A DNA stretch of 64,000 nucleotides, taken from positions 2,700-66,699 of the IMG/VR virus record IMGVR_UViG_3300023202_000102. One strand, given 5' to 3'. A model generated the notes under the pieces. It saw only the letters and a list, made by a program, of their open reading frames with translations, was not told the DNA's origin and did no database searches. Within the stretch, counting starts at the first letter, position 1. Each line of letters opens with the position of its first letter. The translations under genes were made by a program, and so were the position numbers. Shown one piece after another: positions 13,072-59,445 of this stretch. Origin of the DNA: a virus (lineage: Duplodnaviria > Heunggongvirae > Uroviricota > Caudoviricetes).

Positions 13072-13084
13072 CTTGGAGGAAAAG

Positions 13085-19705: not shown

Positions 19706-20192
19706 TGAAGAAGATTTATCTTGCTGGTCCTACGTATTCAGGTCAGACTCAAAAGAGATAGGTAAGTTTCTCAAAGGGCTTTGTGAGGCTTTTGGTTTTG
19801 AAGGTGTGTATCCATTAGACAACGAGATATCAAACATCGAATCGAAACCAAGGCAAGCTCTTGGTAAAGAGATTGCTGAAGCAAATGTCGAACTCATTCA
19901 TGGGTGTGATTATGTTTTAGCAAACCTTGAACCTTTTCGAGGGCCAAGCGCAGACTGTGGAACAGTCTGGGAGTGTGCCTATGCTAAAGGTTTGGGAAAG
20001 ATGGTTGCTGGATACTCAAAGACAAAATCATTACCATACAAAGACAAAGTCCTCAACGTACTTCCTCATGATGGAATGATGGTAGAAGACTTTCACGCTT
20101 GGGATAACATCATGTTAGTGCATGGTATTGATTTTATGTGTAGTGACCCTCGTGTTGGTTTACAATGGCTTAGAGAACAGGACAAGAAATGA
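19705..20192 (+). pseudogene. Nucleoside 2-deoxyribosyltransferase-like (PF05014) gene with an apparent -1 frameshift after codon about 17
   Basis: ATG at 19705 gives the family N-terminus MKKIYLAGPTYSGQTQKR then TAG. The remainder (…EIGKFLKGLCEAFGFEGVYPLDNE…DCGTVWECAYAKGLGKMVAGY) is in the -1 frame (track ORF 19656..20192). The junction is in an A-run 'ACTCAAAAGAGATAG'. Confidence 0.55.
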
Positions 20193-20782
20193 TTCAAGAC
20201 ATATACCCTCCGGTTGTTGTTGAAACAACAATGAAAGGTGAGAAACATTGGGATATCTTTAGCCGTTTGATGAGGGACCGCATCATCATTCTTGGTGATG
20301 TAATAGATGATGATGTTGCTAACATCATTATTGCGCAGATGTTGTACCTTCAAAACGAGGATTCGGAGAAGGACATCGATCTTTACATCAACTCTCCCGG
20401 TGGAATCGTTACATCAGGTATGGCCATACTTGATACGATGAATTACATCAAGTGTAATGTGAAGACTATCTGTATGGGTCAAGCCTCATCAATGGGCGCT
20501 CTGCTTCTTGCCGCAGGAACCAAAGGCAAAAGAAAAGCATTACCCAATGCACGAGTAATGATCCACCAACCGCTTGGGGGTGTGCGAGGACAGGCCTCAG
20601 ACATTAAGATCCAAGCCGACGAGATAGATAAGATCAAGAATAAAATCACAGATATTCTGGTAAAAGCTACCGGACAAAATCGTGACAAGGTCTACCAAGA
20701 TATAGACCGTGACTTCTATCTATCAGCCGAAGAGGCCAAAGAGTATGGCCTTATTGATGAAGTAATTTCTTCTGGTGACTAA
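20189..20782 (+). CDS. clpP: ATP-dependent Clp protease proteolytic subunit ClpP (copy 1)
   Basis: Collinear with ClpP; catalytic Ser in '[11 protein letters not shown]', His in '[10 protein letters not shown]', Asp in '[12 protein letters not shown]'. Confidence 0.9.
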
Positions 20783-27132: not shown

Positions 27133-27927
27133 ATGGCTCAAACAACATTACAGCAAAGGCAGATAGGATATGAAAAGATTACTGACCAACGAATCATGGG
27201 GAGAGTTCCTGTGGTTATCTCATTGGATGCGAAGAAATTCCTCACAGTAACTAAGTCTGTTCAAAAACCTTTCTGTCACAAGACAATGGCCCTCCTAAAT
27301 GACACAATGCTTTCTATGGTAAAACAAATAGATGGCTGTGTGTTGGGGTACCAATATAGTGATAAGATCATTTTGATTCTGAAGAATGACAAGAACGCTG
27401 ACCCCTGGTATGGGAACCGCACATTGCCAATGGCAACAGTTGCATCCTCAATGGCTACCTGGGAGTTCATGAGTAACTTTTATCAGATGGACAACCCTCC
27501 CGATCTGGAAGGATCCATTCTATGGAAAGGTCATGCATTTGGTTTGCCTGATCATAATGAGGTTGTGAACTATCTCATTCATCATCAGTATCAGTGCATG
27601 CATCATTCTGTAAACAAAGCTGTCTACTCTTTACTTGAAACAAGGTATGGAGATCAAACGGCCGAACTTCTCAAAGAGAAGAACATGGATGATAGGAAGC
27701 GGATTCTGGAAGAGGCGGGGCTAGACCTGTCCGACTTTCCCAGCTCTTATCTTCATGGTTCCTTAGTGTATAAGATCCCCAAGATGGAAGAGACATCTGA
27801 GGGTCATATGCAGAGGACCCGATGGATGTTAGATATGAAAATCCCGCTGTTCACAGAGATGCGGGAGATGATTCATACCATCCTAGATACTGGCAGTGAT
27901 GTGTTCAAGCCGGAGCGCGATGCGTGA
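27133..27927 (+). CDS. Thg1-like protein (tRNA-His guanylyltransferase family, 3'-5' nucleotidyltransferase)
   Basis: 'GRVPVVISLDAKKF' (compare VVVRLDGRNF), 'QYSDKIILILK' (compare GQSDEYSFVFK), 'TLPMATVASSMATWEF' (compare ASKFMTHVASQFAS); length 264 aa fits. Confidence 0.55.
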   Translation: MAQTTLQQRQIGYEKITDQRIMGRVPVVISLDAKKFLTVTKSVQKPFCHKTMALLNDTMLSMVKQIDGCVLGYQYSDKIILILKNDKNADPWYGNRTLPMATVASSMATWEFMSNFYQMDNPPDLEGSILWKGHAFGLPDHNEVVNYLIHHQYQCMHHSVNKAVYSLLETRYGDQTAELLKEKNMDDRKRILEEAGLDLSDFPSSYLHGSLVYKIPKMEETSEGHMQRTRWMLDMKIPLFTEMREMIHTILDTGSDVFKPERDA

Positions 27928-35438: not shown

Positions 35439-37187
35439 ATGAAAAACAAGAAGGCACTGTGGATTGTTGGCTCTATGATTGCTATGTTACTGGTTGTTTA
35501 TCTATCAGTTCCAAGCATCATTAGGGCCATCATCGCATCAAAAGCGGAGGGTGTTGTCGTCAAAGATATCTCCTGGTCTTTGACATCGTTGACTCTCAAA
35601 AACATTTTCATCGATAGGAAAGAAGCAAAGGGTGCTGTCACCAAGGTTGAGGCTCGGTTCTCATGGGATAGCCTGAAGCCATCTGTAAGTGATATTCAGG
35701 TTCATGGTGGTAAGCTCACGGCCTTTATCTCAAAGCCCTCTGTGAAGCCCGCTGAGGCCAAGGACAAGGCCGAGCACCAAGAGCTGTCGGACAAGCTCAA
35801 AGAGCTGCCTGTATCGATAGTTGAGCTGGATGAGGTCAGTCTTGACCATAACTTTGGCCAGGCTCGGGTTCTGAAGCTGCAATACTTTCGTGACGCCCCC
35901 GTGATTCAAAAGTCAGGATTTGATCGTAAGCCCCTCACGGTTATGGCTGAACAAGTTATTGTAAAGCCCAAGTCTATATTCGGAGAGTTAAGTATTAACA
36001 ATGTAGAGTACTCTTTAGTAACGGAGTACTTGGACATTGGTGTAGTCCAGGGGAGTGTGCTCAACGTTGATCTTCCTGGACTACCAAAGGATGAGCTTGG
36101 GTTTACTCTCAATGAGGCCGAGATTGATCTTGCTCTCAAGACAGTTAACGCTGAACGTGCCACGATTCCTGGAGTTGGTGTTGCGGAGAAGATTACCTTC
36201 CGTGCATTTGATGAACACGCTCCTGCCTTTGCTATTGGCGAGCTACGTTCCGAACACCCTTGGTTCACAACTAACGTAAAGTTCATCTCAGGATCTGTTA
36301 GTTCTAGTGGCGAGTTCTTGATCGATGTTGGAGGGGTAAGAACAGAAGGCAACTACAAGAAGCTCCAAGTAAAAGGTTCGGGTTCCTGCTTTGATTGGAA
36401 CGAAGCTATCATGACAGGTGTGAATGATAGCATCTACAGTCACGCTGTGCATCCCCCTTTGTTTGAAAGTGGCAACATTGAGTTTGAGATTGACCCAACT
36501 AAATTAAAGCTAAGTCTCAAACAGGATTGTAAAGCTAGCTGCTCCAATCCTTTGATGACACAGCTGCGTCGAAGGAAGGGTAATGGGCCATCACATCTCA
36601 AAGGCCATGACGGGTTTGCTCATCTCACCTACACACCCGATGGTAAACCATCTAAGATGCGCAGCACTGGTAGGGGACATGTAAGATGGGCGTCTCTATC
36701 GCTCATGTCTCCACAAGTAAGGAATGCTTTTATTACGCTGGAGGACCCTACTTTCAATATACATGACGGCATTGTCATGGCTTCTGTTATTGCCTCGTTC
36801 AAGCAGAACATCAAGCTGGGTAAGTTTCATGTTGGTGGATCAACAATCACACAGCAACTTGCAAAAAACATCTGGCTCACCCGAGATAAAAATATTGTCC
36901 GTAAAGCTAAGGAAGCTTTGCTTGCCTGGGCATTAGAGGATTGCTTTTCCAAGGATGAGATCCTCGAACTGTATCTCAACGTGGTTGAGTTTGGTCCTAA
37001 TGTGTACGGTATCTATGATGGTGCGCAGTATCGGTTCGATAAATCATTCGTTGATCTTACCGAAGAGGAAGCTTTTTATCTCGCCAGTATTTTGCCACAA
37101 CCCAACTCTGCTCAACCTCCTGGTGATCTGTCTAGGACACAGAAGTTGATGACTAAGGTTGCTATTTTATTCGAAGATAATGAATAG
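35439..37187 (+). CDS. Membrane-anchored protein with a C-terminal GT51 peptidoglycan glycosyltransferase (MtgA / PBP transglycosylase) domain
   Basis: N-terminal TM 'LWIVGSMIAMLLVVYLSV'. C-terminal 'ITLEDPTFNIHDG', 'GGSTITQQLAKNIWL', 'EALLAWALEDCFSKDEILELYLNVVEFGPNVYGI', 'LTEEEAFYLASILPQPN' match all GT51 signature blocks. Confidence 0.8.
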   Translation: MKNKKALWIVGSMIAMLLVVYLSVPSIIRAIIASKAEGVVVKDISWSLTSLTLKNIFIDRKEAKGAVTKVEARFSWDSLKPSVSDIQVHGGKLTAFISKPSVKPAEAKDKAEHQELSDKLKELPVSIVELDEVSLDHNFGQARVLKLQYFRDAPVIQKSGFDRKPLTVMAEQVIVKPKSIFGELSINNVEYSLVTEYLDIGVVQGSVLNVDLPGLPKDELGFTLNEAEIDLALKTVNAERATIPGVGVAEKITFRAFDEHAPAFAIGELRSEHPWFTTNVKFISGSVSSSGEFLIDVGGVRTEGNYKKLQVKGSGSCFDWNEAIMTGVNDSIYSHAVHPPLFESGNIEFEIDPTKLKLSLKQDCKASCSNPLMTQLRRRKGNGPSHLKGHDGFAHLTYTPDGKPSKMRSTGRGHVRWASLSLMSPQVRNAFITLEDPTFNIHDGIVMASVIASFKQNIKLGKFHVGGSTITQQLAKNIWLTRDKNIVRKAKEALLAWALEDCFSKDEILELYLNVVEFGPNVYGIYDGAQYRFDKSFVDLTEEEAFYLASILPQPNSAQPPGDLSRTQKLMTKVAILFEDNE

Positions 37188-37334
37188 GGCAGGATACATA
37201 GTACTTCTCATCGCTTTGTTGATGGGTTTGTGGACGTTTAGTTACACAGGAATTTTCATGTTGTACCGCTTCGGACTTTTGCTTGGCGGGTTCGCCACTG
37301 GGTTTTTGGTGCACAAGATATTCTTTTCAAGGTA
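37182..37334 (+). CDS. Tiny membrane protein (50 aa) overlapping the GT51 stop
   Basis: MNRAGYIVLLIALLMGLWTFSYTGIFMLYRFGLLLGGFATGFLVHKIFFSR; below the track cutoff. Confidence 0.3.
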
Positions 37335-37385
37335 ATTGTGTTTAAGGAAATGATATGACTGATAAAGCAAAACAAACAGAGCAAG

Positions 37386-37904
37386 TTGTTGAACAGGTGC
37401 AACAGGCGCAGAAGACTTGGCCTGATGTTGCTGACAAAACTGTTGACAAAGTCTCTGACATGGTTGTTGCTATTAGAGACACTCTCACAAGCTCCTCAGG
37501 TATGGAATGGTCTGGTTAAGTACCACCAGACCATAGCCATTACTGAACTCATTACCGATCTTGCTATTATCAGTATCATCTTGGCCTTAATGTTCGGCGC
37601 ACGGAATATTATCAAGAAGGGTGATGAACGTCAAAAGGTCTATGATGAGATCTGGGATGACTACAAAGAAAGACTAGCTGCTGCCAAAAAAGAAGCAGAT
37701 GATACTGGCGTGCCAGCTCACAATGTAAGCGTTGATCGAAATACCTGTGAAGATGGTTTGGGCTATCACATTGGTGGATGGCTTCTGTTTGTAGCCATGA
37801 CTGTACTGTTTATGTTTAGGCTGAATGCTCTTAATGATTCAGTAGCTAAAATAATGGTTCCTGAACGAGCTGCTGCTTACGAGATTATCAAGTCTGTTCG
37901 CTAA
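37386..37904 (+). CDS. Membrane protein, start uncertain
   Basis: The track ORF N-terminus (RRRRLG...) looks out-of-frame; the credible part is 'TDLAIISIILALMFG...GWLLFVAMTVLFMF'. A separate 54-aa ORF (37355..37519) overlaps in another frame. Confidence 0.35.
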   Translation: MLNRCNRRRRLGLMLLTKLLTKSLTWLLLLETLSQAPQVWNGLVKYHQTIAITELITDLAIISIILALMFGARNIIKKGDERQKVYDEIWDDYKERLAAAKKEADDTGVPAHNVSVDRNTCEDGLGYHIGGWLLFVAMTVLFMFRLNALNDSVAKIMVPERAAAYEIIKSVR

Positions 37905-38152
37905 GGTAGAAGTTCAAGGATGTCAGAGTCATGAAGCTCGGTAACATCAGAGGGGTCGTACAACAAGAATCCTTTCTCAAATTTTGTTAACTGATTTGTT
38001 TTCTTGATGATGGTTATCAAATCATCTTTTCCAGTCACCTTTATATGACTTGTCATAATTCTGACAATTAATCCTCCCTCAGGGAAAAGTAAAAGCAGCT
38101 TGTCCGCTATCTTTTTTAGGAAAAACAAGTCAACATTCATAACAATATACAA
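37901..38152 (-). CDS. Small hypothetical protein on the minus strand
   Basis: 83 aa ORF in a gap on the plus strand. Confidence 0.3.
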   Translation of the reverse strand: MYIVMNVDLFFLKKIADKLLLLFPEGGLIVRIMTSHIKVTGKDDLITIIKKTNQLTKFEKGFLLYDPSDVTELHDSDILELLP

Positions 38153-38156
38153 AACT

Positions 38157-38954
38157 ATGTGTACTCTATCTGTAGCCTTCTATCCAAGAACTCCTCGGCC
38201 ATTTACTATTGTCGCTAATAGAGATGAAAATCCTGAGCGTCCATCTGAACCCTGGGGGTGGAGAAATTTTGGCGCTATTAATGGGTATATGGGTGGGGCC
38301 GGAGAGATGGTAAGAATATTTTCTCCTCTTGATGTTCTTGGTGGTACTTGGATTGGTGTAAATGACAGGGGTATGTTCTGCGCCATTACTAATTGGGATA
38401 TCGATCTTGATTGGGAAAGGCCAGCAGAAGGGTTCATATCAAGGGGTTATTTTGTTAACGACACACTGAGATGTACGTCTGTTTCTAACGCTAAGAATAT
38501 GTGGAACAAGCTTGACCATAAAAAATACAAACCATTCAATGCGATCTTTGGGTGGGTATCGAAAGAAGGATATACATCTGCCTGGTCAATTACCAATGAC
38601 ACTCAAAGTATAGTTTGTAAACGCCTGAATGCTGGTCTTCACATCTCCACTGGTGAGGGGTTAAATGTTTCAACAAATGAGCGTGATAAATACATTCGTA
38701 AAAGCATTAGGTTTGAAAGTTGGGAACAGCCTATTGATGTGGATGATCTGAAGGGCGTTCTAAAATCTCATCATATGGGTATCGGTGATGATAGGTCTGT
38801 GTGTCAGCATGACGAATCTCATAAATGGGAAACCAGATCACAATCAAGCATCATAATAATGCAAAGCACCATTTTAGTGGGTCATGTTGATGGTCACCCA
38901 TGTGAAGCTCAAGAGAAGGATTGGACACATGAAAGTCTTAGTGACGGCAGGTAG
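38157..38954 (+). CDS. NRDE/TANGO2-family protein
   Basis: Starts MCTLSV (the family's N-terminal Met-Cys) and carries the eponymous 'IVANRDENPERPS' motif. Confidence 0.5.
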   Translation: MCTLSVAFYPRTPRPFTIVANRDENPERPSEPWGWRNFGAINGYMGGAGEMVRIFSPLDVLGGTWIGVNDRGMFCAITNWDIDLDWERPAEGFISRGYFVNDTLRCTSVSNAKNMWNKLDHKKYKPFNAIFGWVSKEGYTSAWSITNDTQSIVCKRLNAGLHISTGEGLNVSTNERDKYIRKSIRFESWEQPIDVDDLKGVLKSHHMGIGDDRSVCQHDESHKWETRSQSSIIIMQSTILVGHVDGHPCEAQEKDWTHESLSDGR

Positions 38955-39630
38955 TACACAAACACCCATTGATAAGGTTCGGTGTATCTCTAACATCTTC
39001 AAAGGAAGTACTGGGTTTAATATTGCTAAGGCAATTGGTTACGCTGGAAACGAGGTTGTTCTGATTGCAAACAAAAAAGTTCTGTATGAATACCTCGGTG
39101 ATCTTCCAAACCGCTTTGACATACATACATATAAAACGTATGATGAACTTGCTGAATTAATGGCTAGACTAATTCCTGATGGAGAGTTTGATGCCATCAT
39201 TCATTCAGCAGCTGTGTCTGATTACAAAGCAACAGACGTAATGGTTGGTGAAAAGGTTACTATTGATGGGGTAACCAAACCGGTATACATGAAGTCTGTC
39301 ATGAAGGGTAAGGTTAAATCTGACCACGATGAATTGTACATCAAGCTTGAACGTACAGAGAAGCTTATAGATAAAATTAGAACTGAGTGGGGCTTCGAAG
39401 GAAAGCTCATCAAGTTCAAGCTTGAGGTAGATGTCACAGACGAAGAGTTGCTTTCCATCGCAAAGTCCAGTCGAGAGCACTCCGGCGCGGACTATATTGT
39501 TGCAAACGCTCTTGACACTTTCAAGGATTGGGACACGCCAAGTATGTTCATCCTTGGTAATGAACTGCAAGAAAAGACATCTCGTAGAGAGCTGCCAATG
39601 AAACTGCACAAACTTCTTGAAAAGAAATGA
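38929..39630 (+). CDS. coaB: Phosphopantothenate-cysteine ligase (CoaB domain, stand-alone)
   Basis: 'MKVLVTAGSTQTPIDKVRCISNIFKGSTGFNIAKA' (compare [29 protein letters not shown]), 'SAAVSDYKA', 'IVANAL'. Confidence 0.75.
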   Translation: MKVLVTAGSTQTPIDKVRCISNIFKGSTGFNIAKAIGYAGNEVVLIANKKVLYEYLGDLPNRFDIHTYKTYDELAELMARLIPDGEFDAIIHSAAVSDYKATDVMVGEKVTIDGVTKPVYMKSVMKGKVKSDHDELYIKLERTEKLIDKIRTEWGFEGKLIKFKLEVDVTDEELLSIAKSSREHSGADYIVANALDTFKDWDTPSMFILGNELQEKTSRRELPMKLHKLLEKK

Positions 39631-40244
39631 CAAACATTGTACTAGGTGTTTCTGGATCGATTGCCAGCATCATGACTCCAGAGATTGTAAAAGCTCTGAG
39701 ACCTATTGGTAATGTGAAGGTTGTACTGACAAAGTCTGCGCTCACTCTCATGCAAAAAGCTCCTGAGAAATTGCAGCATGAGATGGCCACATCTCTAGAA
39801 GAGCAAGACCTGTATGATGATCATGTTGAGTGGAAGTGGAAGAGGCTGGGTGATCCTATTCAGCATGTTGAGTTAAAGAAGTGGGGAGATGTTCTTGTTA
39901 TGGCTCCGCTTAGTGCTAATACATTGGCCAAGATGGCGGCCGGAATGTGTGATAATCTTTTGACTTCTGTGTACAGGGCCTGGCAAAGGAACAAGCCGAT
40001 TGTACTAGCTCCAGCAATGAACACAGATATGTGGGAACATCCCGTCACCGAAGAGAGCTTGTACAGACTTAGAAGCAGACATCACATTACAGTGCAAGAT
40101 GATGGGGTTTATCGATACTATGATAAGCTTAAAATTGTTAACCCTATCGTAAAGAAACTTGCGTGTGGAGATACTGGTACTGGTGCTTTGGCTAATGCAG
40201 AAGATATAGCCGGGGTTGTGAGGGAGGTTGTGAGTGCCCGTTAG
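39627..40244 (+). CDS. coaC: Phosphopantothenoylcysteine decarboxylase flavoprotein (CoaC domain)
   Basis: 'IVLGVSGSIASIMTPEIVKAL', 'VLVMAPLSANTLAKMAAGMCDNLLTSV', 'ACGDTGTGAL' match the CoaC/Dfp N-domain. Confidence 0.75.
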   Translation: MTNIVLGVSGSIASIMTPEIVKALRPIGNVKVVLTKSALTLMQKAPEKLQHEMATSLEEQDLYDDHVEWKWKRLGDPIQHVELKKWGDVLVMAPLSANTLAKMAAGMCDNLLTSVYRAWQRNKPIVLAPAMNTDMWEHPVTEESLYRLRSRHHITVQDDGVYRYYDKLKIVNPIVKKLACGDTGTGALANAEDIAGVVREVVSAR

Positions 40245-40653
40245 TACAGATGCAATATTGTTTTATGGGATTACATCCCAGGATGATGCAGATTCACCGG
40301 CAGAAGTTTGTCGTAGGTTGGATCTAATTACAGATGAAGAAGCTTTCGAAAAAGAAGGTGGTTCTTATGAAGAAACTCTCAAAGATTACCTCAAGCCAAA
40401 AGGTTTGGATTTCGGGATTCATGGTTCTAACAGCGCTGGGATTGTATACATATTCCCGTTGGATGAAAAAGAAGAAGCCAACCGATACTGCATTGTATCA
40501 GTTCGCGGATACTTCAACGAAATAGATTCATTAAAGCTTGGTAACTTAGCTAAAATATTATCACCAAAGATCATAAAGGCAATGAATGAAATTGCTCAAG
40601 AGCTTGGTTACTGGGCACCTTCTTGGAAGTTAGTAAGTTACTGGGAAGTATAA
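40234..40653 (+). CDS. Hypothetical protein
   Basis: 139 aa ORF. Confidence 0.45.
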   Translation: MPVSTDAILFYGITSQDDADSPAEVCRRLDLITDEEAFEKEGGSYEETLKDYLKPKGLDFGIHGSNSAGIVYIFPLDEKEEANRYCIVSVRGYFNEIDSLKLGNLAKILSPKIIKAMNEIAQELGYWAPSWKLVSYWEV

Positions 40654-40654
40654 T

Positions 40655-41170
40655 ATGATTTATATAGAAGATGAATACTCATACAATGGAACAGTACAAA
40701 TAGTAACATCATTGTATCGATACTACACAGACAAAGATGGAAAATACATTAGCGATCCTTCCGGTTCTAAAATACAAAATGGCGAGCTAATCCCACAGGA
40801 TCTTGCCTTTGGGTATGACTCAATCAACCAGGATTATGTCGCACTAAATACAGAGGCATGTGATAAGATTAAAGATCTTGCAGAAGGTCTTGATGATAAG
40901 ATATTCAATAAGTCCTTCAAAATAAAGAAGGTGTACGGTGAGCTTGAAATTTCTTCTATGATGAATGTTGATGATCAACCAGAGCAGAAGATTGACAACA
41001 AGCATTTCAAAAAGCTTGCCATGCAATATCTGAACGTGTCTGAGTTAGATATGAGAGCGGCAACTCCAATTGAAAAGAAACCCAAACCAATACAAAGCAT
41101 TCGTTTTAGTACCTCTTCATCAACAACACTTAATTATGTGACTTTTACATATGGAACGAATCAAAATTGA
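40655..41170 (+). CDS. Hypothetical protein
   Basis: 171 aa ORF. Confidence 0.45.
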   Translation: MIYIEDEYSYNGTVQIVTSLYRYYTDKDGKYISDPSGSKIQNGELIPQDLAFGYDSINQDYVALNTEACDKIKDLAEGLDDKIFNKSFKIKKVYGELEISSMMNVDDQPEQKIDNKHFKKLAMQYLNVSELDMRAATPIEKKPKPIQSIRFSTSSSTTLNYVTFTYGTNQN

Positions 41171-41408
41171 TGCCGAATCTCAATGGAAAGACAAACCATG
41201 TTGCTATTGTGCATCTGCAATGGCAATTGGTGACCGTGGTCTTGTGATTCCATTCTCAAAAGGAACTCCTGAAAAACCTGAGTGTTTATTAGAGCCTTGG
41301 CATGTAAACTGTTTCCTTCATTCTTGTGGTATCGATAAAAAACTTTCCGATGGTGGACCACAAGACCCAGAGAAAACATTTTTAGATAGAAACTCCAATG
41401 AAGATTAA
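41151..41408 (+). CDS. Small Cys-containing hypothetical protein
   Basis: 85 aa; CCYCAS...C..C. Confidence 0.4.
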
Positions 41409-41673
41409 ACCAATATTTGCATGGTACGATCTGTGGATTGGTTTCTTTTGGGATCAGCACAAGCGCAAGCTGTACTTCTTTCCAGTACCATGTCTTGGTC
41501 TTGTCTTTGAGTTCAAGAAAAAAGAACTCTCAGATTCGTACAGTCATCTAAAAGCAATTGGAAACCCAAAGCTAAAACCAGTCAAGCTTTCTGAAGAGTA
41601 CAAGAAGACTAAGGGAAATGTTCACGATGCATATTCACAAGTGCAAAAAGGCGCAATGAAAAAAAGATCTTGA
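41398..41673 (+). CDS. Hypothetical protein
   Basis: 91 aa ORF. Confidence 0.4.
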
Positions 41674-41698
41674 CAAGACTTCATGAGCCATGTACTAT
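41670..41698 (+). promoter_or_regulatory. Sigma70-like promoter TTGACA-17-TACTAT
   Basis: Best match to consensus in the window; followed by AGGAGA Shine-Dalgarno and the ATG at 41716. Confidence 0.45.
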
Positions 41699-41715
41699 GA
41701 CAGGAGATACTAGAG

Positions 41716-41994
41716 ATGCACTTTGAAACACTATGGAACATGGCTGAAAGCCTGGCCAAGTCCTACACAGACCTAGACCGCAAAGAGATTCTAAAGCTAT
41801 GTCGAAGCGGGATGGATGGTCTGGTAGACGGCACCGAACCTCAAGAGTTGCACGAAGCAATGGGAGATGTTCTTCTTGGACTGTGCGCTCTTTCGGCTCA
41901 CTTCGAAGAAAAGAAAGACATCCAAGTGAATTCATTTCTAGCTCTCAAAGATGCGATTGAAAGAAAACGAGCAGAACTATTAGACCCTGAATGA
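41716..41994 (+). CDS. MazG-like nucleotide pyrophosphohydrolase domain protein (tentative)
   Basis: All-helical 92 aa with 'ELHEAMGDVLLGLCALSAHF' resembling the MazG EExxE/D metal helix; weak. Confidence 0.4.
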   Translation: MHFETLWNMAESLAKSYTDLDRKEILKLCRSGMDGLVDGTEPQELHEAMGDVLLGLCALSAHFEEKKDIQVNSFLALKDAIERKRAELLDPE

Positions 41995-42563
41995 AATTCA
42001 TCACTACACTCCTTGCGATCCTTTTCGTTGCCAGCACGGCCCTTGCTGATCAGCGTATCGTTGGCCACATGACACCGCTCGATTCTGAGCGCCTTGCCAA
42101 CCCTGTGACCCTGGACTGTGGCGTAACGCTACAAGAAATCCGTGGTGGGCATCCGGACATTGCCAAGCTCAATGCTTTGTGTACCCATGCCATGTCGAAC
42201 TTCTTTGCATTCGTACAGCACAAAGGGCTCAAGGTGAGCCGCAAAGATAAGTTCAATTGGGATGCTTCCCTTCTTCCTATTGATAATAGGTATCGTTCGC
42301 TCAATGATGAAACGTACCGTTTCCGAAACCGTTTTGTTAAGGGAAACATCATCGGTTACACCGATTACGACACCAGATATATGTTCTCTATGGTAAATGC
42401 GAACCATCGTGAATTCAATACCACGTTTGTTCATGAGTTGTTCCATTCAATGAGCATGTACTATGGCGTTTATGACAATCATCCTGGCCCTCTCTCAGCT
42501 AAAACAAATGCGGATGAGGTGCTCGCCCAAGACTTTACAGAGGCACTCGGATACGGAAGGTAA
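41991..42563 (+). CDS. Secreted HExxH zinc metallopeptidase-like protein
   Basis: Signal peptide 'MKFITTLLAILFVASTALA'; 'FVHELFHSM' HExxH. Confidence 0.5.
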   Translation: MKFITTLLAILFVASTALADQRIVGHMTPLDSERLANPVTLDCGVTLQEIRGGHPDIAKLNALCTHAMSNFFAFVQHKGLKVSRKDKFNWDASLLPIDNRYRSLNDETYRFRNRFVKGNIIGYTDYDTRYMFSMVNANHREFNTTFVHELFHSMSMYYGVYDNHPGPLSAKTNADEVLAQDFTEALGYGR

Positions 42564-42686
42564 TTTCTTCTGCTGCGGTAAGTACGAACCTTATCGCGAG
42601 GGTGGTGAGTATCCCAATGGGGTATTCATTGACCCCTATGTGGACTTGATGGTATCCGGTCCTGACTCAACGCTTTGTAAAAAAGT

Positions 42687-43397
42687 ATGCAAACAATACA
42701 AGTGCCAAGAGGCAAAGAAGTAGTATTTATTGGTGACATCCATGAAAAGGAATGGCACTTCGATGAGATGGTAAGACGTACCGAGATTGGTACAAAAAGG
42801 ATCGGCGTCTTTGTTGGAGACTTTCTCGACAAAGGTGATGGACTTGAGGTAGGTAACTCAATTATTCGTAAGGTTACGACCCTGGCTAGAGACGGCTGGG
42901 CCTATGCAGTCCGTGGAAACCACGAAGCAAAACACATCAGACATTCTGAACGTGAAGGTGAGAAGCTCTCCGATGAACTCAAGTGGTGCCAGGGTCTACC
43001 CCTGGCGTTGTCATTTTTATTCTCTAATCAAAATAGAATCACAGTACTTCATGCCGGAGTCACTCCCAAACATACCTGGGCAGATCTCTCCAGCAATACC
43101 GAGCTGATGTACATCCGAACATTGGATGAAAAGAACAGGCCCATTCCACTCATCTGGGTAGAAGAAGACGGCAATCGTAAGCTCATTCCCAAGGACGAGA
43201 ATGGCGTACAATGGCACGAAAGATATGACGGGCGGTTCGGGTTCATCATATCTGGTCACGATTCTCAGAAGGATGGAGTACCTAAGTTCTACAAGCATTC
43301 CTGCAATCTTGATACAAGATGCTATGAAACCGGCATTTTGACTGGTCAAATCGTATCTGATGGTAAGTTAACAGAACTTGTAACTGTTCAAAAATAG
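42687..43397 (+). CDS. PPP-family (calcineurin-like) Ser/Thr/Tyr metallophosphatase
   Basis: 'VVFIGDIHE', 'GDFLDKGD', 'VRGNHE', 'VLHAGV', 'SGHD' motifs in canonical order. Confidence 0.7.
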   Translation: MQTIQVPRGKEVVFIGDIHEKEWHFDEMVRRTEIGTKRIGVFVGDFLDKGDGLEVGNSIIRKVTTLARDGWAYAVRGNHEAKHIRHSEREGEKLSDELKWCQGLPLALSFLFSNQNRITVLHAGVTPKHTWADLSSNTELMYIRTLDEKNRPIPLIWVEEDGNRKLIPKDENGVQWHERYDGRFGFIISGHDSQKDGVPKFYKHSCNLDTRCYETGILTGQIVSDGKLTELVTVQK

Positions 43398-43428
43398 CCA
43401 GACATTAGGCAATATCTAGCATTTAAAT

Positions 43429-45717
43429 ATGCTAGACAAGACCGGCAAACCATACAAGAAAGCATCCGGGGAACCAGATTGGCTTACAGAGTCAGAGGGT
43501 TTTCTAGATGATCTGTTTCCCTCTGAGCCCGATTACTCAGCACAGCAAGAGGAGGGTGCGTTCGAAGGTCCAACCACCCCAACTGCCCAGCCGGAGACTC
43601 AGCCACAAGAACAGCCTCAGACAGCTCCAGCTGCCCCTGAGTTGAGCGAGTTCAATGAGCTAGGGCTGGACAACCTCTTTGAAGAGGACGGCTCTGAGCC
43701 AGCGGCTGAGGAGCAGCCCGCTCAGACTGAATGGACGCGTCCAGAATGGTTGCCAAAAGAAAACTACATCTACTCTGATGAAGAGAAGGCCACGCTTCAA
43801 GAGGCGTTCAAAACAGACATCGTTCAGCTTCCTCCTCCGGATCTTTCCAAGGTCAAGAATCTTAAATCTGGTATCCGATATCTAAGCTCTCTTGGTGACA
43901 GAGGCGAGATCGTAGCGCAAAACGTACAAGAGGCCATGACTATGGTGGACTCTGCTACTGCGGATAGAGATAAAGAAGCAGTTAAGCGAGCAGCTCAAGC
44001 TGCCGCCTCGGCATCTATCAACCTACACACCCTTGCCAAAGAGGCTGAGAATGTCTTTGGTGATAAGGATACTGTGGGTAAGGTTCGTACCGCTGTTGAT
44101 ACAATGATTGCTCTCATTGCGGAAGAGGTAGGTTCAAAGCTCTCTGATAGGGGTCAGGATTTCTACAACAAGATGTTTGATAAGGAGACCATGGAGAGAG
44201 TAAGAAAGCGCAAGCCTCTTACTGGTCAGTACTATCCAGAGTGGTACATCAACCGTGACCTTCGCACCATCCAAATCATGGAGAACCAAGGCCTTACTGA
44301 GGACAAAGCCCTTGAAAAAGCAAAGAAAGAAACTGAACGAGCTGAAATTCTTATCGATCAGAACCTGAAAGACGCCTCAGTTAATGACAAAGAGCGATAC
44401 AAAGCTGAGTTTTCTCGTCAGCTTGTCTCTGGTTCTTCAATTGAAGATGCCGAGGAACACCTTATCAACCTAATGACTCGTGGTTCAAACGAAAAAATCT
44501 TTAGTGAGATTAACCTTCGACCATTTGTAGACAATGATGAGGCAATTCAAGATAAGATAGATCTTATCAAGGAACCTGAGGGTTTTGTTATTGACCTTAC
44601 AGAAGAGGGTATTGATACCAATGTGGCCACCAAGATTGGTGATCAGATTAGGGACTTCGCTCGTGCCGCTGATAGAACTTTGAAGTACATACTAAACGTA
44701 CCTGATACTGGTGCTGAATATGGTTCAGAAGAAAATGTCATGGGTAGAACTAACCTGGCTAGGGCCCATGCTTTGTTCAGTAAGCTCATGATGACTCCTA
44801 AGGAAATCATTGAGAACGAATATGTCAGAGAAACTTTTGATGACATTTACATCATTGATAGAACGCTCAGTGACTATGCTAAGAATGAAAGGTATGGACT
44901 TGGTGGTGCTGCCGGTCAGGAAACACCGGGTGGAGTCAGTTCTACCCTGAAAGATTTTGATGAGGACGTGAAGGGTCCAGAGGTTAATGAACAAACTCTG
45001 CAGGGTGGAACAGAAGACACTGGCTTTCAAGAGATTGGAACCAAGCCTTCGGGTGGTTCCACCACCACACCTCGTCCTAAAGAGAAGCGTGAGCAACATG
45101 ACAAGGACTATCAACGCCGTCAGCGCGAGTCTGGTGCGTACCAAGCTAAGCTTGAAAGAGATAAGAAAAAATTAGAGGCAGATGCTGAGCGAGCTGCAGC
45201 TCACAATGAGCGTGCCTTCTTGGATGGAACCATCTCTAGAGACAACTACAACAACTCAAAGAGATGGCTCAACCTAACTCGTGGCAGAAAACTACGAGGC
45301 TCTGATGAATACGTTGAGTTTGAGAACCTAGCTAAGCTAGACTCTGCAATTGCAAAGAACACAGCAAAGACTAGAGATTTGATTAGTAAGTACGTTCAAA
45401 AGGTTACTGGCTCTTGGTTTGATGAAGAAGAGAAGAAAAGAAGAATAGTCAATATGGTTGCAAAACTAATTGGCTCTCTTGAAAAAACAAAGGAAAAGAT
45501 AGATGGATCTGAAAAATATGCATCGGAAGTTTCCACAGCTATTGACTCTCTTATTCAAAACATACCAATACTCACAGCTCAAGTTAAAGAAAAAGCAAAC
45601 AAACTAGACATACCAGTAAGAGAGAAAGATTTCAAGGTTAGAGATGGTAGAAAGAAAAGATCAGACGATCTCTTTCGGTTAATTGATATGTTTGCAAAGT
45701 ATGCTGAGACCATATAA
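43429..45717 (+). CDS. Large hypothetical protein (762 aa), PQ/E-rich N-terminus, coiled-coil regions
   Basis: Clean ORF; possibly an ejected or virion protein; no motif recognised. Confidence 0.5.
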   Translation: MLDKTGKPYKKASGEPDWLTESEGFLDDLFPSEPDYSAQQEEGAFEGPTTPTAQPETQPQEQPQTAPAAPELSEFNELGLDNLFEEDGSEPAAEEQPAQTEWTRPEWLPKENYIYSDEEKATLQEAFKTDIVQLPPPDLSKVKNLKSGIRYLSSLGDRGEIVAQNVQEAMTMVDSATADRDKEAVKRAAQAAASASINLHTLAKEAENVFGDKDTVGKVRTAVDTMIALIAEEVGSKLSDRGQDFYNKMFDKETMERVRKRKPLTGQYYPEWYINRDLRTIQIMENQGLTEDKALEKAKKETERAEILIDQNLKDASVNDKERYKAEFSRQLVSGSSIEDAEEHLINLMTRGSNEKIFSEINLRPFVDNDEAIQDKIDLIKEPEGFVIDLTEEGIDTNVATKIGDQIRDFARAADRTLKYILNVPDTGAEYGSEENVMGRTNLARAHALFSKLMMTPKEIIENEYVRETFDDIYIIDRTLSDYAKNERYGLGGAAGQETPGGVSSTLKDFDEDVKGPEVNEQTLQGGTEDTGFQEIGTKPSGGSTTTPRPKEKREQHDKDYQRRQRESGAYQAKLERDKKKLEADAERAAAHNERAFLDGTISRDNYNNSKRWLNLTRGRKLRGSDEYVEFENLAKLDSAIAKNTAKTRDLISKYVQKVTGSWFDEEEKKRRIVNMVAKLIGSLEKTKEKIDGSEKYASEVSTAIDSLIQNIPILTAQVKEKANKLDIPVREKDFKVRDGRKKRSDDLFRLIDMFAKYAETI

Positions 45718-51416: not shown

Positions 51417-52085
51417 ATGCGAAAAACCAATCTTAATCCGATATTCTTTGAGAAAACAAAAGACGGCGAGGCGATGTATGATGTATCATCTCGTCTAGTA
51501 AAAGACAGAGTCATCTACATTGACTGTGAGATAGATGAAGAGATAGCTGCACAAGTGACTGCATTGTTATTCCTACTTGATAGAGAAGCTGATGATAAGC
51601 CAATCAAGATGTGGATCAATTCACCTGGTGGCGACCTTACAGGTTTCTTTGCTATCTATGACATGATGCATCGAGTCAGGGCTCCTATTAGAACTGTTTG
51701 TGTTGGGCAGGCGTGCTCTGCCAGTGCCCTTCTCTTAGCCTCAGGTTCTCCTGGGATGCGATATGTAATGCCTAACTCCCGTATTATGATTCATCAGATT
51801 CAGATTGGTGGGCTGGAAGGGTCTAACGCAGAGATTGAGATAGAAACAAAAGAATTGAACCAGGTTCAAGATCGTCTTACAGAAATCCTTGCTCGTCATT
51901 CTGGTCATACCAAAGCAAAGATTAAGAGAGATACCAAGATGGATAAGTGGTTCAGTGCGGAAAGAGCTATTGAGTATGGGCTGGCAGATAAAATTCTTAA
52001 TCCCATCAAGGAAGCTCCCGACCTCATTACCAGAGAGCCTAAGAGAGGTAAAAAGGTTGAGGTAGATGATGGTACAGAGGAATGA
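51417..52085 (+). CDS. clpP: ClpP protease subunit (copy 2, divergent paralog)
   Basis: 'WINSPGGDLTGFFAIYD', Ser in 'VGQACSASALLLA', His in 'SRIMIHQ', Asp in 'KIKRDTKMDKWFSAERAIEYGLAD'. Confidence 0.85.
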   Translation: MRKTNLNPIFFEKTKDGEAMYDVSSRLVKDRVIYIDCEIDEEIAAQVTALLFLLDREADDKPIKMWINSPGGDLTGFFAIYDMMHRVRAPIRTVCVGQACSASALLLASGSPGMRYVMPNSRIMIHQIQIGGLEGSNAEIEIETKELNQVQDRLTEILARHSGHTKAKIKRDTKMDKWFSAERAIEYGLADKILNPIKEAPDLITREPKRGKKVEVDDGTEE

Positions 52086-54912: not shown

Positions 54913-56409
54913 ATGCTGGAGAGTAAATTGGATAGTCCCGTAAAGAGGGTGAACGCACAAGCGTCCACATTAAAGGAAGAAGACGTAGACTGGATTGTAT
55001 CAGAGATGATGGATCATTTCTCCGGAAAGATTCATTCTCTTGCAACATATGTGTATGGTTCCGAACAAGGAGTTGCACTTGCTGCATTCAAAGAATACGC
55101 TTCTCAAACATTAGAGAATGGAACAAAAACATTTCTCTTTAAGTCTGAGCATTGGCGAACGGGCCGCTCTATTGGGCCATATCTATCCGCATGTCTTGGA
55201 AAGCTAGCCGACTCTTTGAAGTCAGACATTGACTTTGTCAAGAAGGTTTCGATTCCCATCTGTCCCGCATGCAAGACATTAAGCAGTAGAGAGTACCTTA
55301 CCTATGAAGGCAAGCTGTTGCGCTGCCCAACATGCACTAAGGAAAGTATTCGTCTTGCTGATAAGGAACGCTCCTCAAGGGAGGAATATGAGTACAGACT
55401 TCGTAAGGTTTTTTCACTGCATTCTCGTAAGGGTTATCGGTGCCCTGACTGTGAGCGTTTCGTACCTCACTCAACAATAGATGGGGCAGAGAGAACTTCA
55501 TGTCCTTACGATGACTGCGGTTGGTTTGGTAAGGCAACCGATCTTAAGTTGATGTCTCACCCCGTTGGGCAAAGCTCAGGTGTAACTGTGAGCTTGAATG
55601 CCACGGTGGGCGAAGGCTCTGAAGCCATGTCTCAGAAGTTCCAAGAGTTTGGAGACATGCTCGATGCAAACGAAGTAACTCCAGACATTCGCATTGAGCA
55701 AGCTGAGAAGTATTTGCGAGAGCTTGAAGTAACTCGTGCCGTTCTCTCAACTCAGAGAGAGCGCCTGTCACGCCAGCCAAGTCCGAAGACCATCAAAAAG
55801 TACTTGATGTATAAAGCGTTTGAGTCATTACTTGAGCACGACCCAGAGGGAATGATTGCGTATCTTATCCATGGTAAGTCCAGAGGTGAGCGTCCAATAC
55901 AATCTCTTATCTTTCAGAGATACATTCAGTTGGTTGAGAACCATCTGCCTTTTGATGTATATGGAGAAGATGGTATACTGGAAGCTTATTCACTGCTAGA
56001 TCCTAACCTAGATCTGTTCCTGGGGGTGAGCGAGTACCAAACTCATGTGCGTGAAAGTGGTTTCGTAGCTAACAATACCCACGAAATCTTTCAGGGAAGC
56101 AAGTGCAACGGCCCATGTTTTATTGGAATGTTGTGTGATATCACTGACGGAGATGACAATTCTCTGATGTCAGAGGTGGAGTACTATACATTCTCAAGCA
56201 TTAAGATGAAGGATACGGTGCAGCCGAACACCCTAGTGAAGGTAACTCATTTCAGGATTCCACCACACTATGAAATGTATTCTTTGGTAAATTTACAGCG
56301 TGTACGGCGCAAAGTAGTTGATTCTATCTACAAGCGTTTGCATGGTGAGAAGAGGCCACTCAAGAGTAATGAAAGCAGTAAAGTCATTTCCCAGGTATCT
56401 GATCGATAA
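54913..56409 (+). CDS. Hypothetical protein (498 aa) with several zinc-ribbon-like CxxC pairs
   Basis: 'CPACKTL...CPTCTKE', 'CPDCERF...CPYDDCGW'. Confidence 0.5.
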   Translation: MLESKLDSPVKRVNAQASTLKEEDVDWIVSEMMDHFSGKIHSLATYVYGSEQGVALAAFKEYASQTLENGTKTFLFKSEHWRTGRSIGPYLSACLGKLADSLKSDIDFVKKVSIPICPACKTLSSREYLTYEGKLLRCPTCTKESIRLADKERSSREEYEYRLRKVFSLHSRKGYRCPDCERFVPHSTIDGAERTSCPYDDCGWFGKATDLKLMSHPVGQSSGVTVSLNATVGEGSEAMSQKFQEFGDMLDANEVTPDIRIEQAEKYLRELEVTRAVLSTQRERLSRQPSPKTIKKYLMYKAFESLLEHDPEGMIAYLIHGKSRGERPIQSLIFQRYIQLVENHLPFDVYGEDGILEAYSLLDPNLDLFLGVSEYQTHVRESGFVANNTHEIFQGSKCNGPCFIGMLCDITDGDDNSLMSEVEYYTFSSIKMKDTVQPNTLVKVTHFRIPPHYEMYSLVNLQRVRRKVVDSIYKRLHGEKRPLKSNESSKVISQVSDR

Positions 56410-56674: not shown

Positions 56675-57038
56675 GCATCCAGTTTACCAGAGAATGGTCG
56701 AGTTTCTTAAGAAGAAAGAAGAGAATGATATGGCAGATACACTTGGAAGTTTAATTGATAAGTTGATTACAGCAGACCTTAAGATGTGGAACGGACAGGA
56801 AGTTCTATATGAAATTAGGCGCATGACATTTGATGAGTTCAAAGAAAAATATTGGACTGATGAAGATGGGGCTGAAAAATTATGGGAAATATTGAAGCGT
56901 GCATGTGATCTTAATGTTCAGCGTAATCAATTGATTGACGAAATTGACCAAAAGATTGTTGAGATAGCAAGTGACGCTGCGGCTGGAGAAGATTTGGATG
57001 CCGGAAAGCATATCCAACGAAAGCACAAGACATACTGA
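56622..57038 (+). CDS. Hypothetical protein
   Basis: 138 aa ORF. Confidence 0.4.
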   Translation: MPERRSMGSLFRSLTMFEHPVYQRMVEFLKKKEENDMADTLGSLIDKLITADLKMWNGQEVLYEIRRMTFDEFKEKYWTDEDGAEKLWEILKRACDLNVQRNQLIDEIDQKIVEIASDAAAGEDLDAGKHIQRKHKTY

Positions 57039-57546
57039 GCTTCCACTCGGAAAGATAAGGCAGGTACAAGAGGGTGATGTTGACTCTCTTGTACTTGTGT
57101 ATGACGAGATAGTTTCTTCTGGAGCTTACGAGTTCTTTCATCCACACGAGATGAGTGCTGAGTATGCTGAGGGAATTTGTCGTTACAACAAGTACAATAA
57201 TGATAGATACTATCTATGGATACATGATGGTGTTCCGGTAGCCTACGGCATGATGAGGTACTTCGGGTACGATGTTCCTTCTCTCGGCATCTATGTCTGT
57301 GAAGAGTTTCGAGGCAAGGGTGTTGGAAGAGCATTGATGCTAGAGATGCATAGACAGTCTGAGATTCTTGGAGATAATAGTATTCGTCTCACTGTTGAAA
57401 AAGGAAATGAAAAAGCTATATCTCTGTATAAGTCTCTCGGATATTCAATGCAAGATTGCGGAGACTATCTCCTTGGAATGAAGTACTTCCAAGGTGAAGA
57501 GTTGGCAGAGGAAGAAAGATTTGACATAGAGGAAAATCCCTGCTAG
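56971..57546 (+). CDS. GNAT-family N-acetyltransferase
   Basis: Motif A 'VCEEFRGKGVGRALMLEM' and motif B 'LTVEKGNEKAISLYKSLGY'. Confidence 0.6.
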   Translation: MTLRLEKIWMPESISNESTRHTELPLGKIRQVQEGDVDSLVLVYDEIVSSGAYEFFHPHEMSAEYAEGICRYNKYNNDRYYLWIHDGVPVAYGMMRYFGYDVPSLGIYVCEEFRGKGVGRALMLEMHRQSEILGDNSIRLTVEKGNEKAISLYKSLGYSMQDCGDYLLGMKYFQGEELAEEERFDIEENPC

Positions 57547-58332: not shown

Positions 58333-59445
58333 ATGATTCTTTTCGTACAGTTATTCATTCCAGCAATCATTGCGCTCGTTGGTTTCTTTTTCCTGAAGGA
58401 CAAGGGCGGCAAGCAAACCATTGATTGGAAAGAGTTCTTGGCACAGATGGCGGCACAGCTTTTGATTGCTGGCATCACTGTGGCAATCATTCTAAGCTCT
58501 AATACTTCTGACGTTGAAACCATCTCCGGTTACGTTACTGACAAAAAGAAGAATAAGGTTTCATGTGAACACTCTTATGATTGTAATTGTCGTGAAGAGT
58601 GTACCGGATCTGGTGAGAGTAAAAGTTGTTATCAAGTATGTGATACCTGTTATGATCACTCTTATGATTGGGACTGGGATGTGTATACAACGGTGGGAGG
58701 GTTTACAATTTCCCGCATTGATAGTCGGGGCACTCGCCAACCATCGCGCTGGAGTGCTGTAAGGATTTCTGAGCCTGTTGTAAGACATCACTCATTCACA
58801 AATTACATCAAATCTGCGCCGGATACTTTGTTTCGCCAGGAGGGTTACAAAGGAATCGCTGTTCCTGCCTATCCTGATAACATATACGATTACTGGCATA
58901 TCAATCGGTTCGTAGGAGATGCACCTGTTCGTAATGCCAAGGCATGGAACAATGATCTGATGAAGATCAATGCAGACATTGGAGCGAAGAAGCAGGTAAA
59001 CATGATCATTGTCACGACCACTAAAGGTCATGACTTTTACTTTGCCCTCAAACAAGCTTGGCTTGGCGGCAAGAAGAACGATGTTGTTCTTGTCTTGGGC
59101 TTGCAGGGTGAGGAGATTGCCTGGGCTGATGCCTTGGCATGGTCACAAGATGAATCTATCAAGGTGGAGCTTCGTGAAGCCATGATGGAGATTGGTGTAA
59201 TGGACCGAACGAAAGTCATTAGTGCTTTCAAAGCGAACGTTCTCAACCACTACAAGCGTAAACCCATGAAGGACTTTGAATACTTGAAGTCCTCAATCAC
59301 ACCAACAACAACCCAGTGGATTGTGTCCCTTGTTATTGGGATCATTGTCTCGGTGGGTCTAACAATTCTATTCCACATTTACGATCCCTTTGAACCAAAT
59401 AGGCGTTTCGGCTATCGTTCAAGGCTTTACAGAAGAAGGTACTAA
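58333..59445 (+). CDS. Bitopic membrane protein with Cys-rich extracytoplasmic domain
   Basis: N-terminal TMs, '[39 protein letters not shown]', C-terminal TM + basic tail; directly upstream of the LemA-like gene. Confidence 0.5.

Follow-up and report, generated by a model that had tools for sequence, protein, structure and literature searches.

In children, TANGO2 deficiency causes a lethal disorder, and what the protein does biochemically is under dispute: it has been described as a heme chaperone, an acyl-CoA binder or a hydrolase. Established, by contrast, is the step of coenzyme A (CoA) biosynthesis carried out by CoaB and CoaC (PPCS and PPCDC), which together convert 4'-phosphopantothenate, cysteine and CTP into 4'-phosphopantetheine. 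Here, we describe a phage locus in which the genes for these three proteins lie one after the other: a TANGO2/NRDE homolog, coaB and coaC are encoded, in that order, by three overlapping open reading frames (ORFs) on the + strand, at positions 38157-40244 of a 64,000-nucleotide stretch (hereafter, the window) of the Caudoviricetes record IMGVR_UViG_3300023202_000102 (IMG/VR). We consider it reasonably probable that TANGO2, CoaB and CoaC form one functional module at the cysteine-adding step of CoA biosynthesis; the trio recurs in huge phages and in small-genome bacteria, and once as a fusion, and TANGO2 therefore probably works at this very step.

A connection between TANGO2 and CoA is already present in the eukaryotic literature: vitamin B5 rescues models of TANGO2 deficiency (bioRxiv 10.1101/2022.11.04.514597), human TANGO2 binds acyl-CoA through its NRDE motif (PMC11867700), and a defect in CoA salvage has been speculated (PMC11179719). 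Structures place TANGO2 among the Cys N-terminal-nucleophile (Ntn) hydrolases (PMC12359130, PMC13044924); in the human protein, R32, K56, and R88 bind sulfate ~10.8 Å from Cys2 (PMC13044924), and docking places the pantothenate-cysteamine amide of palmitoyl-CoA on Cys2 (PMC12359130). Work on a bacterial homolog, for its part, argues for heme trafficking (PMC10470608). A first, sequence-only reading of the window had stated that NRDE/TANGO2 proteins have no established function; this is still fair, although the statement passes over the link with CoA just described. The literature we searched yielded nothing linking TANGO2 to phages, nothing on prokaryotic TANGO2 gene neighbourhoods involving coaB or coaC, and nothing tying TANGO2 to PPCS, PPCDC or pantetheine chemistry. 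What is known is the family of each protein and the TANGO2-CoA connection in eukaryotic genetics and binding; what is new is a CoA-biosynthesis gene cluster with a recurrent added TANGO2.

In the window, the TANGO2 homolog is encoded at 38157-38954 (265 amino acids (aa), starting with MCTLSVAFYP...ANRDENPERPS), coaB at 38929-39630 (233 aa, starting with MKVLVTAGST) and coaC at 39627-40244 (205 aa, containing LACGDTGTGAL). The first two genes overlap by 26 nt and the last two by 4 nt (ATGA). The sequence-only reading had placed coaB and coaC as separate, overlapping genes right after an NRDE-motif gene; the gene calls of the source contig, which were made independently, give the identical three genes with identical Pfam families. 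All three proteins match their families far beyond chance and above the gathering scores: PF05742 for TANGO2 (67.9 bits for a cut-off of 22.6, E-value 2e-18, residues 1-233), PF04127 (DFP) for CoaB (98.8 bits for a cut-off of 22, E-value 4.2e-28) and PF02441 (Flavoprotein) for CoaC (105.2 bits for a cut-off of 22.7, E-value 3.4e-30). The three genes are real, intact and translationally overlapped. The same reading had named two observations that would speak against it, namely a failed hidden Markov model (HMM) test and missing catalytic residues; as the HMM assignments hold and the CoaB Asn and Lys and the CoaC Cys are present and invariant among relatives, neither was encountered. No clear Shine-Dalgarno sequence was found ahead of any of the three genes (38140-38156, 38915-38928, 39612-39626), and the host lineage may not rely on such sequences. 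Scanning 37000-43500 for sigma-70 promoters and terminators gave promoters no better than those of shuffled sequences, and the operon boundaries are not clear from it.

The TANGO2 homolog has hallmarks of its family. Its Met-Cys N-terminus (Cys2) and its NRDE motif (N21-R22-D23-E24) occur without exception in 29 homologs, and a further 88 loci conserve them too; the 29 homologs, which share 36-46% identity, also keep T3, R28, G63-T64-W65, T78-N79-W80-D81, G97, T165-G166, R176, and H218. A profile of TANGO2 homologs matches the human TANGO2 crystal structures with an E-value of 1e-12 over residues 1-125, and in this alignable N-terminal half, to which the residue comparison applies, C2, NRDE (human N25-E28), R28 (R32), GTW, TN, and R96-G97 (R88-G89) find their counterparts. 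Arg28 and Arg96 of the phage protein stand where human TANGO2 has Arg32 and Arg88, which bind phosphate/sulfate. The AlphaFold2 model (pLDDT 88.4, pTM 0.88) leads to the same relatives: its best Foldseek matches are human TANGO2 9bwa and 8sv7 (E-values of about 1e-12, at best 8e-13; TM 0.66), followed by CV2077, penicillin V acylases, bile-salt hydrolases, and NAAA, all of them Cys-Ntn hydrolases. We thus predict, on the basis of this model, the alpha-beta-beta-alpha four-layer Ntn fold seen in the human crystal structures, and the window protein is a predicted Cys-Ntn hydrolase. As its Cys directly follows Met1, ordinary methionine removal would expose the nucleophile.

These likenesses come with differences. 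Human TANGO2 (8sv7, 9bwa) and the phage protein have in common the Met-Cys N-terminus, NRDE, the Arg residues at the R32 and R88 positions, GTW, TN, and a WETR-like C-terminal motif; overall, however, they are only ~21% identical, the phage protein has no mitochondrial-targeting context, Lys56 is not conserved in it, and it sits in an operon with CoaB and CoaC, a context that eukaryotic TANGO2 lacks. The Cys-Ntn hydrolases and peptidase C45 enzymes, such as penicillin V acylase, bile salt hydrolase, NAAA, acyl-CoA:isopenicillin N acyltransferase, and CV2077 (3gvz), share the predicted alpha-beta-beta-alpha fold and the N-terminal Cys nucleophile, but the window protein has no propeptide, and identity to them is 9-14%.

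Neither CoaB nor CoaC reaches an NCBIfam equivalog cut-off. The best models for CoaB are the phosphopantothenate-cysteine (PPC) ligase PRK06732/NF005231 (128 bits for a cut-off of 265) and coaB_strep TIGR02114 (120 for 217), and those for CoaC are coaBC_dfp (120 bits) and coaC_strep TIGR02113 (112 for 261); the two proteins are therefore divergent members of their families, and the name of CoaB rests on Pfam, motifs, and context. The closest solved relatives of CoaB are the monofunctional enzyme of S. pneumoniae (2gk4, E-value 2e-34), then E. coli CoaB (1u7u, E-value 1e-12). Asn22 aligns with E. coli N210, the position mutated in 1u7u (N210D), and Lys128 with the last Lys of E. coli EKIKK, which we take to be K289; Asn22, the IHSAAVSD motif, and Lys128 are invariant among relatives. 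The type III CoaB of Streptococcus and Enterococcus (2gk4; TIGR02114) and the CoaB domain of E. coli CoaBC (1u7u) belong to the same family as the window CoaB and have the same fold, the AAVSDY motif, and both ligase residues (Asn, Lys); like the type III enzymes, the window protein stands alone, with ~230 aa; unlike both, it is encoded by a phage, carries a lineage-specific insertion ahead of the Lys motif, and stays below the equivalog cut-off.

CoaC, on the other hand, resembles eukaryotic enzymes more than bacterial ones: its profile matches AtHAL3a with an E-value of 7e-63 and human PPCDC with 1e-55, versus 4e-21 for bacterial CoaBC. Judged by these matches, it is a monofunctional decarboxylase of the eukaryote/Candidate Phyla Radiation (CPR) type, with which its miss of the bacterial equivalog cut-offs fits. 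His80, Asn98 (PLSANT), P129-A-M-N-T-D-M-W136 (PXMNXXMW), and Cys180 are invariant in eight sequences, and Cys180 (in LACGD) aligns with Cys175 of AtHAL3a, the residue changed to Ser in the 1mvl mutant (C175S). The active-site His, PXMNXXMW, and the substrate-clamp Cys tell PPC decarboxylases apart from other HFCD enzymes. Homologs that carry a name, at 41-46% identity, are PPCDCs from algae, oomycetes, and animals plus one Candidatus Vogelbacteria protein. The closest solved relatives, AtHAL3a (1e20, 1mvl) and human PPCDC (1qzu), are monofunctional as well, with identical catalytic His, Cys, and Asn motifs; here, however, the gene belongs to a phage and to Patescibacteria-like bacteria, and several phage copies have a 20-30 aa insertion before the substrate-clamp Cys, unlike eukaryotic PPCDCs.

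We can, thus, say with high confidence, as far as conserved residues allow, that CoaB would ligate cysteine to 4'-phosphopantothenate and CoaC would decarboxylate the product to 4'-phosphopantetheine; with similar confidence, the phage enzymes would raise or protect the CoA-precursor supply of the infected cell. One could imagine instead that these CoaB/CoaC-like proteins and TANGO2 act outside CoA biosynthesis, on another substrate, e.g., a peptide or cell-envelope carboxylate that gains cysteamine. Such a role would be in line with the CoaC of a sister huge-phage clade, which is fused to a Peptidase_M23-like domain (e.g., P0091), with the HFCD flavoproteins, which include the peptidyl-cysteine decarboxylases EpiD and MrsD, and with the 64-kb window itself, in which we saw no further CoA gene, be it for CoaA, CoaD, CoaE, acyl carrier protein or phosphopantetheinyl transferase. 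We hold it to be very unlikely, since CoaC is 41-46% identical to genuine eukaryotic PPCDCs and keeps His, Cys, and PXMNXXMW, scores 215 bits with AtHAL3a versus 71 bits with EpiD, CoaB retains the Asn and Lys on which PPC ligation depends, and no other coaB or coaC copy was seen in the loci examined from Patescibacteria-like genomes.

Finding relatives of the locus was not straightforward. Megablast of 37300-41200 against 50,697 phage records gave zero matches, PHROGs holds no family for TANGO2, CoaB or CoaC of the window, and a single-sequence scan of IMG/VR with the window TANGO2 found nothing, so that an alignment query was needed. Relatives of the trio were then recovered on IMG/VR viral contigs, and the order TANGO2, coaB, coaC, and metallophosphatase is found in at least seven related phage contigs: L002, L004 (453 kb), L006 (121 kb), L007 (173 kb), L011 (124 kb, IMG/VR), L012 (151 kb), and L050 (38 kb). 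This order persists at a TANGO2 identity of only 28-44% (34% for L012 and 28% for L050, the more distant copies), and several of these contigs have unrelated small ORFs inserted between the three genes. More widely, about 30 IMG/VR contigs (38-527 kb) carry split coaB and coaC, in two clades, and TANGO2 is confined to the coaB-coaC clade that holds the window and the bacterial locus L015 described below. Among the 50,697 deposited phage records, none encodes a TANGO2 homolog detectable by tblastn with the window protein, and matches to coaB/coaC have at most 34% identity, some of them in the huge-phage genomes LR756500-LR756503. Phage boosting of CoA synthesis had been called unusual at first sight; phage-borne coaB/coaC is rare in cultured phages, as the missing PHROG family illustrates, but recurrent in huge metagenomic ones.

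Two other arrangements were seen in these phages. In the second huge-phage clade, CoaC (PF02441) is fused to the C-terminal Peptidase_M23-like domain mentioned above (L063 7977-9113, L072 7995-9038, and L081 7992-9128, on IMG/VR contigs of 212-527 kb, as well as P0091), with M23 E-values from 2e-8 to 4e-5, coaB just upstream, and no TANGO2. Conversely, L008 984-3201 (also L009 and L010) has a TANGO2 of the phage clade (36% identity) without coaBC; next to come are the gene of a PDZ protein, one small ORF, and a gene of the SIR2 family (NAD-dependent deacylase).

The trio is also present in cellular genomes, where Patescibacteria-like contigs carry it as a tight operon beside TrmB. A scan of bacterial genomes, with one genome per species, recovered 32 TANGO2 loci, mostly from Eisenbacteria, and coaB and coaC lie beside TANGO2 in one of them, L015, a 1.52-Mb contig of "bacterium FK3.bin42" where TANGO2 (8001-8786), coaB, and coaC overlap end to start among cellular neighbours (CofD/YvcK, glycosyltransferases, TrmB, CDP-alcohol transferase). 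Seeding a metagenome scan with L015-like TANGO2 returned 80 loci, eight of which have coaB and/or coaC adjacent to TANGO2. L092 (143 kb) is syntenic with L015, with phosphoribosyl pyrophosphate synthetase and RecQ nearby; in L015, L092, and L176, a divergent TrmB gene precedes TANGO2-coaB-coaC with overlapping stops and starts, and L177 shows the same layout with TANGO2-coaB (L176, which has coaC in addition, L177, and L174 are relatives at 50-53% identity). In L174, an Aldolase_II gene stands between TrmB and TANGO2-coaB, after which the contig ends, and L093 carries TANGO2-coaB-coaC on a short contig. The flanking genes of L015, L092, L174, and L176 are cellular, and the protein of one relative is named Patescibacteria group by NCBI. 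Finally, in L099 and L100, which belong to separate TANGO2 branches, the order is reversed to coaB-coaC-TANGO2, and the genes overlap here as well.

An exhaustive HMM search of 1.84 billion representatives gave 6961 TANGO2 family members at an E-value of 1e-3 or below, and one of these, P0236 (NCBI MDO8583589.1, 488 aa, from a bacterial metagenome-assembled genome (MAG) and known from the protein record alone), is a TANGO2-CoaB fusion: a complete TANGO2 (residues 1-236, 127 bits), an 18-residue linker, and a complete CoaB (residues 255-480, 259 bits). In comparative genomics, genes of a common pathway are classically recognised by operons that are conserved, by gene orders that vary, and by the fusion of domains. 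The placement of an NRDE gene directly ahead of CoA genes, which had been taken as a functional hint from a single operon, is, thus, a much stronger one, as it recurs in a phage clade, in bacterial operons, in two gene orders, and in one fusion.

Not every candidate was kept. P0076, in which Pfam finds TANGO2 and Flavoprotein and which could pass for a TANGO2-CoaC Rosetta-stone fusion, was rejected as an in-frame deletion product that has lost coaB; the overlapping stop-to-stop ORFs of L159 are two separate genes and not a fusion, and neighbour clustering at the high-GC Eisenbacteria loci was ignored, as it is dominated by shadow ORFs. Another bacterial TANGO2 subfamily (L108 7041-8048, L139 2485-4380, and seven related metagenome loci) lies beside Amidohydro_2 and a protein combining metallo-beta-lactamase and double-rhodanese domains; the latter resembles persulfide dioxygenase, a hint of chemistry on thiols or sulfur.

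A tree of 99 TANGO2 loci, built by uncorrected neighbour-joining and without support values, puts every coaBC-linked TANGO2 in one subfamily, where phage and cellular sequences are mixed. Where flanking DNA suffices, 17 loci of this subfamily are linked and three are unlinked, and elsewhere none of the 39 is; the Fisher test on 17/20 versus 0/39 gives 4e-12, a value that ignores relatedness.

TANGO2 was, in turn, lost several times within the coaB-coaC clade of the window and L015. The direct evidence of such a loss is a relic at L051 7737-8001 (IMGVR_UViG_3300028920_000022, 459 kb), located directly upstream of an intact coaB, internally deleted and frameshifted, which retains the N-terminal 38 aa and the C-terminal 64 aa of TANGO2. 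In L007, TANGO2 is truncated to 195 aa; in P0076 (288 aa), found in two samples (L172 681-1547; L173 425-1291), residues 1 to ~116 of TANGO2 continue in frame with CoaC from about its residue 13, so that the C-terminal half of TANGO2 and the whole of coaB are deleted. The most economical history is that of an ancestral TANGO2-coaB-coaC block that moved between Patescibacteria-like cells and huge phages, with TANGO2 later lost; the phage of the window most likely inherited the trio as a block from a small-genome, Patescibacteria-like bacterium.

One has to weigh several points against a common module. TANGO2 mostly lies away from coaBC (39 of 39 informative loci outside the subfamily, 31 of 32 in the bacterial scan), and the CoA link could therefore be specific to the subfamily; most huge-phage coaB-coaC pairs do without TANGO2, and its decay in L051, L007, and P0076 means that the phage can dispense with it. 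The counts are not independent, given that the phage cases are linked by phylogeny; the trees are uncorrected and unsupported as said, and the TANGO2-CoaB fusion is a singleton from one MAG, seen as a protein record. To our knowledge, no biochemical activity has been shown for any TANGO2; what is reported for the human protein is binding (PMC11867700).

Some of these points would suit a linkage that is historical only, with TANGO2 co-acquired with a coaB-coaC block from a bacterial donor and busy with an unrelated job, such as the heme trafficking proposed for HtpA/TANGO2: many homologs are unlinked to coaBC, several phages that retain coaB-coaC have lost or degraded TANGO2, and the bacterial HtpA is reported as a heme-trafficking protein (PMC10470608). 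We find this improbable, because the linkage outlasts a divergence down to 28-44% TANGO2 identity in phages, the insertion of other ORFs, and a changed gene order, and occurs as a fusion; no heme-related gene was seen near any linked TANGO2 copy, and the heme role is itself contested (PMC12782551, PMC13044924). HtpA of Shewanella oneidensis (SO0126) is a bacterial member of PF05742 (formerly DUF833), the family of the window protein; compared by description, it adjoins a metal transporter gene and is tied to cytochrome c maturation (PMC10470608), whereas the window subfamily is tied to coaB/coaC, without heme genes nearby.

Coming back to a module at the CoaB/CoaC step, what could TANGO2 do there? 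Linked and unlinked subfamilies alike conserve the active-site and pocket residues C2, NRDE, R28, D59, GTW, N79, SRG95-97, H218, and T226, with D81 as the sole subfamily-specific residue; the chemistry is, therefore, probably common to the whole TANGO2 family. Residues and model together support a catalytic Cys-Ntn amidohydrolase with a conserved putative anion site (Arg28, Arg96). Given this anion site, the exclusive partnership with CoaB/CoaC, and the fusion to CoaB, we tentatively propose that TANGO2 acts on a 4'-phosphopantothenoyl amide, whose hydrolysis would regenerate the substrate of CoaB, 4'-phosphopantothenate. TANGO2 would lose Met1, the exposed Cys2 would act as the Ntn nucleophile, and the 4'-phosphopantothenate released would be returned to CoaB; candidates for the amide are 4'-phosphopantetheine that is damaged or unwanted and products that CoaB has mis-ligated, e.g., to something other than cysteine. 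TANGO2 would then serve salvage or editing, much as editing domains do in aminoacyl-tRNA synthetases. By our estimate from bond lengths, an extended 4'-phosphopantothenate measures, between its 4'-phosphate and its terminal carbonyl, about the ~10.8 Å that separate the human sulfate site from Cys2. The hypothesis would account for three observations: TANGO2 travels with coaB/coaC and no other CoA genes, it occurs fused to CoaB, and vitamin B5 helps TANGO2-deficient cells.

TANGO2 might otherwise be a thioesterase, an acyltransferase or a binder of acyl-CoA or acyl-phosphopantetheine that frees or buffers CoASH and aids CoaBC only in a general way. Human TANGO2 does bind C16:0- and C18:1-CoA via the NRDE pocket (PMC11867700), a structurally related C45 enzyme, acyl-CoA:isopenicillin N acyltransferase, takes acyl-CoA as donor (PMC13044924, PMC12359130), the window protein has a weak C45_proenzyme HMM match (E-value 1.4e-4), and Foldseek lists Cys-Ntn enzymes of acyl transfer and hydrolysis. 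What such a role leaves unexplained is why the partners are always CoaB/CoaC and never CoaA, CoaD, CoaE or acyl-CoA enzymes, and why TANGO2 is physically fused to CoaB; moreover, known Cys-Ntn hydrolases cleave amides. We, thus, regard it as rather unlikely, and keep to the hydrolysis of a 4'-phosphopantothenoyl amide as our working proposal. A wider version, in which TANGO2 would be an unrecognised Cys-Ntn amidohydrolase of CoA metabolism from phages and Patescibacteria to humans, regenerating 4'-phosphopantothenate at the PPCS/PPCDC stage, is a little more doubtful still; if true, vitamin B5 would be caught in dead-end compounds once TANGO2 is lost, and the response of the TANGO2 deficiency disorder to vitamin B5 would have its explanation.

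The value of the locus lies less in the phage itself than in this pointer to the function of a human disease protein. Comparative genomics points to a single location for TANGO2 in CoA synthesis, at CoaB/CoaC (PPCS/PPCDC). What had been a loose "CoA-related" idea now comes with a few substrates that can be tested, and small, soluble prokaryotic and phage orthologs are on offer for enzymology. In huge phages, for their part, split coaB and coaC of the eukaryote-like type are a repeated finding, and as a class of auxiliary metabolic genes they have been little described.

The source contig, which carries the identical TANGO2 protein, is 193.8 kb long and belongs to a huge phage; inside a phage genome and flanked by phage genes, TANGO2-coaB-coaC is a set of auxiliary metabolic genes in the usual sense. 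A virion structural protein (phrog_1383, E-value 2e-65) and phrog_2087 (E-value 2e-106) are encoded at 58333-60020, and four giant ORFs occupy 320-12612 on the − strand, two of which (320-2110 and 2152-5634) have weak tail-fibre/tail-type PHROG matches and one of the four has Laminin_G_3 domains. The gene set is typical of huge phages, with ribosomal protein L7/L12 (13477-13857), two ClpP proteases (20189-20782 and 51417-52085), a TilS-like ATP_bind_3 protein (16630-17466), Thg1 (27133-27927), NAD-dependent ligase, SpoU, HU, and NADAR; together with a tRNA-Met (12999-13072), L7/L12, ClpP, the TilS-like protein, and Thg1 make up the typical huge-phage load of translation and proteostasis genes. 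A record look-up for 54913-56409 returned no match.

Some further ORFs deserve mention. A GNAT acetyltransferase, which uses acetyl-CoA, is encoded ~17 kb downstream of coaB and coaC (56971-57546) and might draw on a boosted CoA pool. At 41991-42563, a 190-aa ORF has a signal-peptide-like N-terminus and a HELFH (HExxH) motif without any Pfam or PHROG match; ORFs of this size stand ahead of the metallophosphatase gene in related phages, and the idea that it is the gene inserted between TANGO2 and coaB in L004 was rejected, as BLASTP found no similarity. Lastly, the window encodes a protein of the PspA/IM30 family (62660-63334) and, at 59445-60020, an ORF with a strong virion-structural PHROG match plus a weak LemA match; both are proteins of the membrane-stress type, here in a phage.

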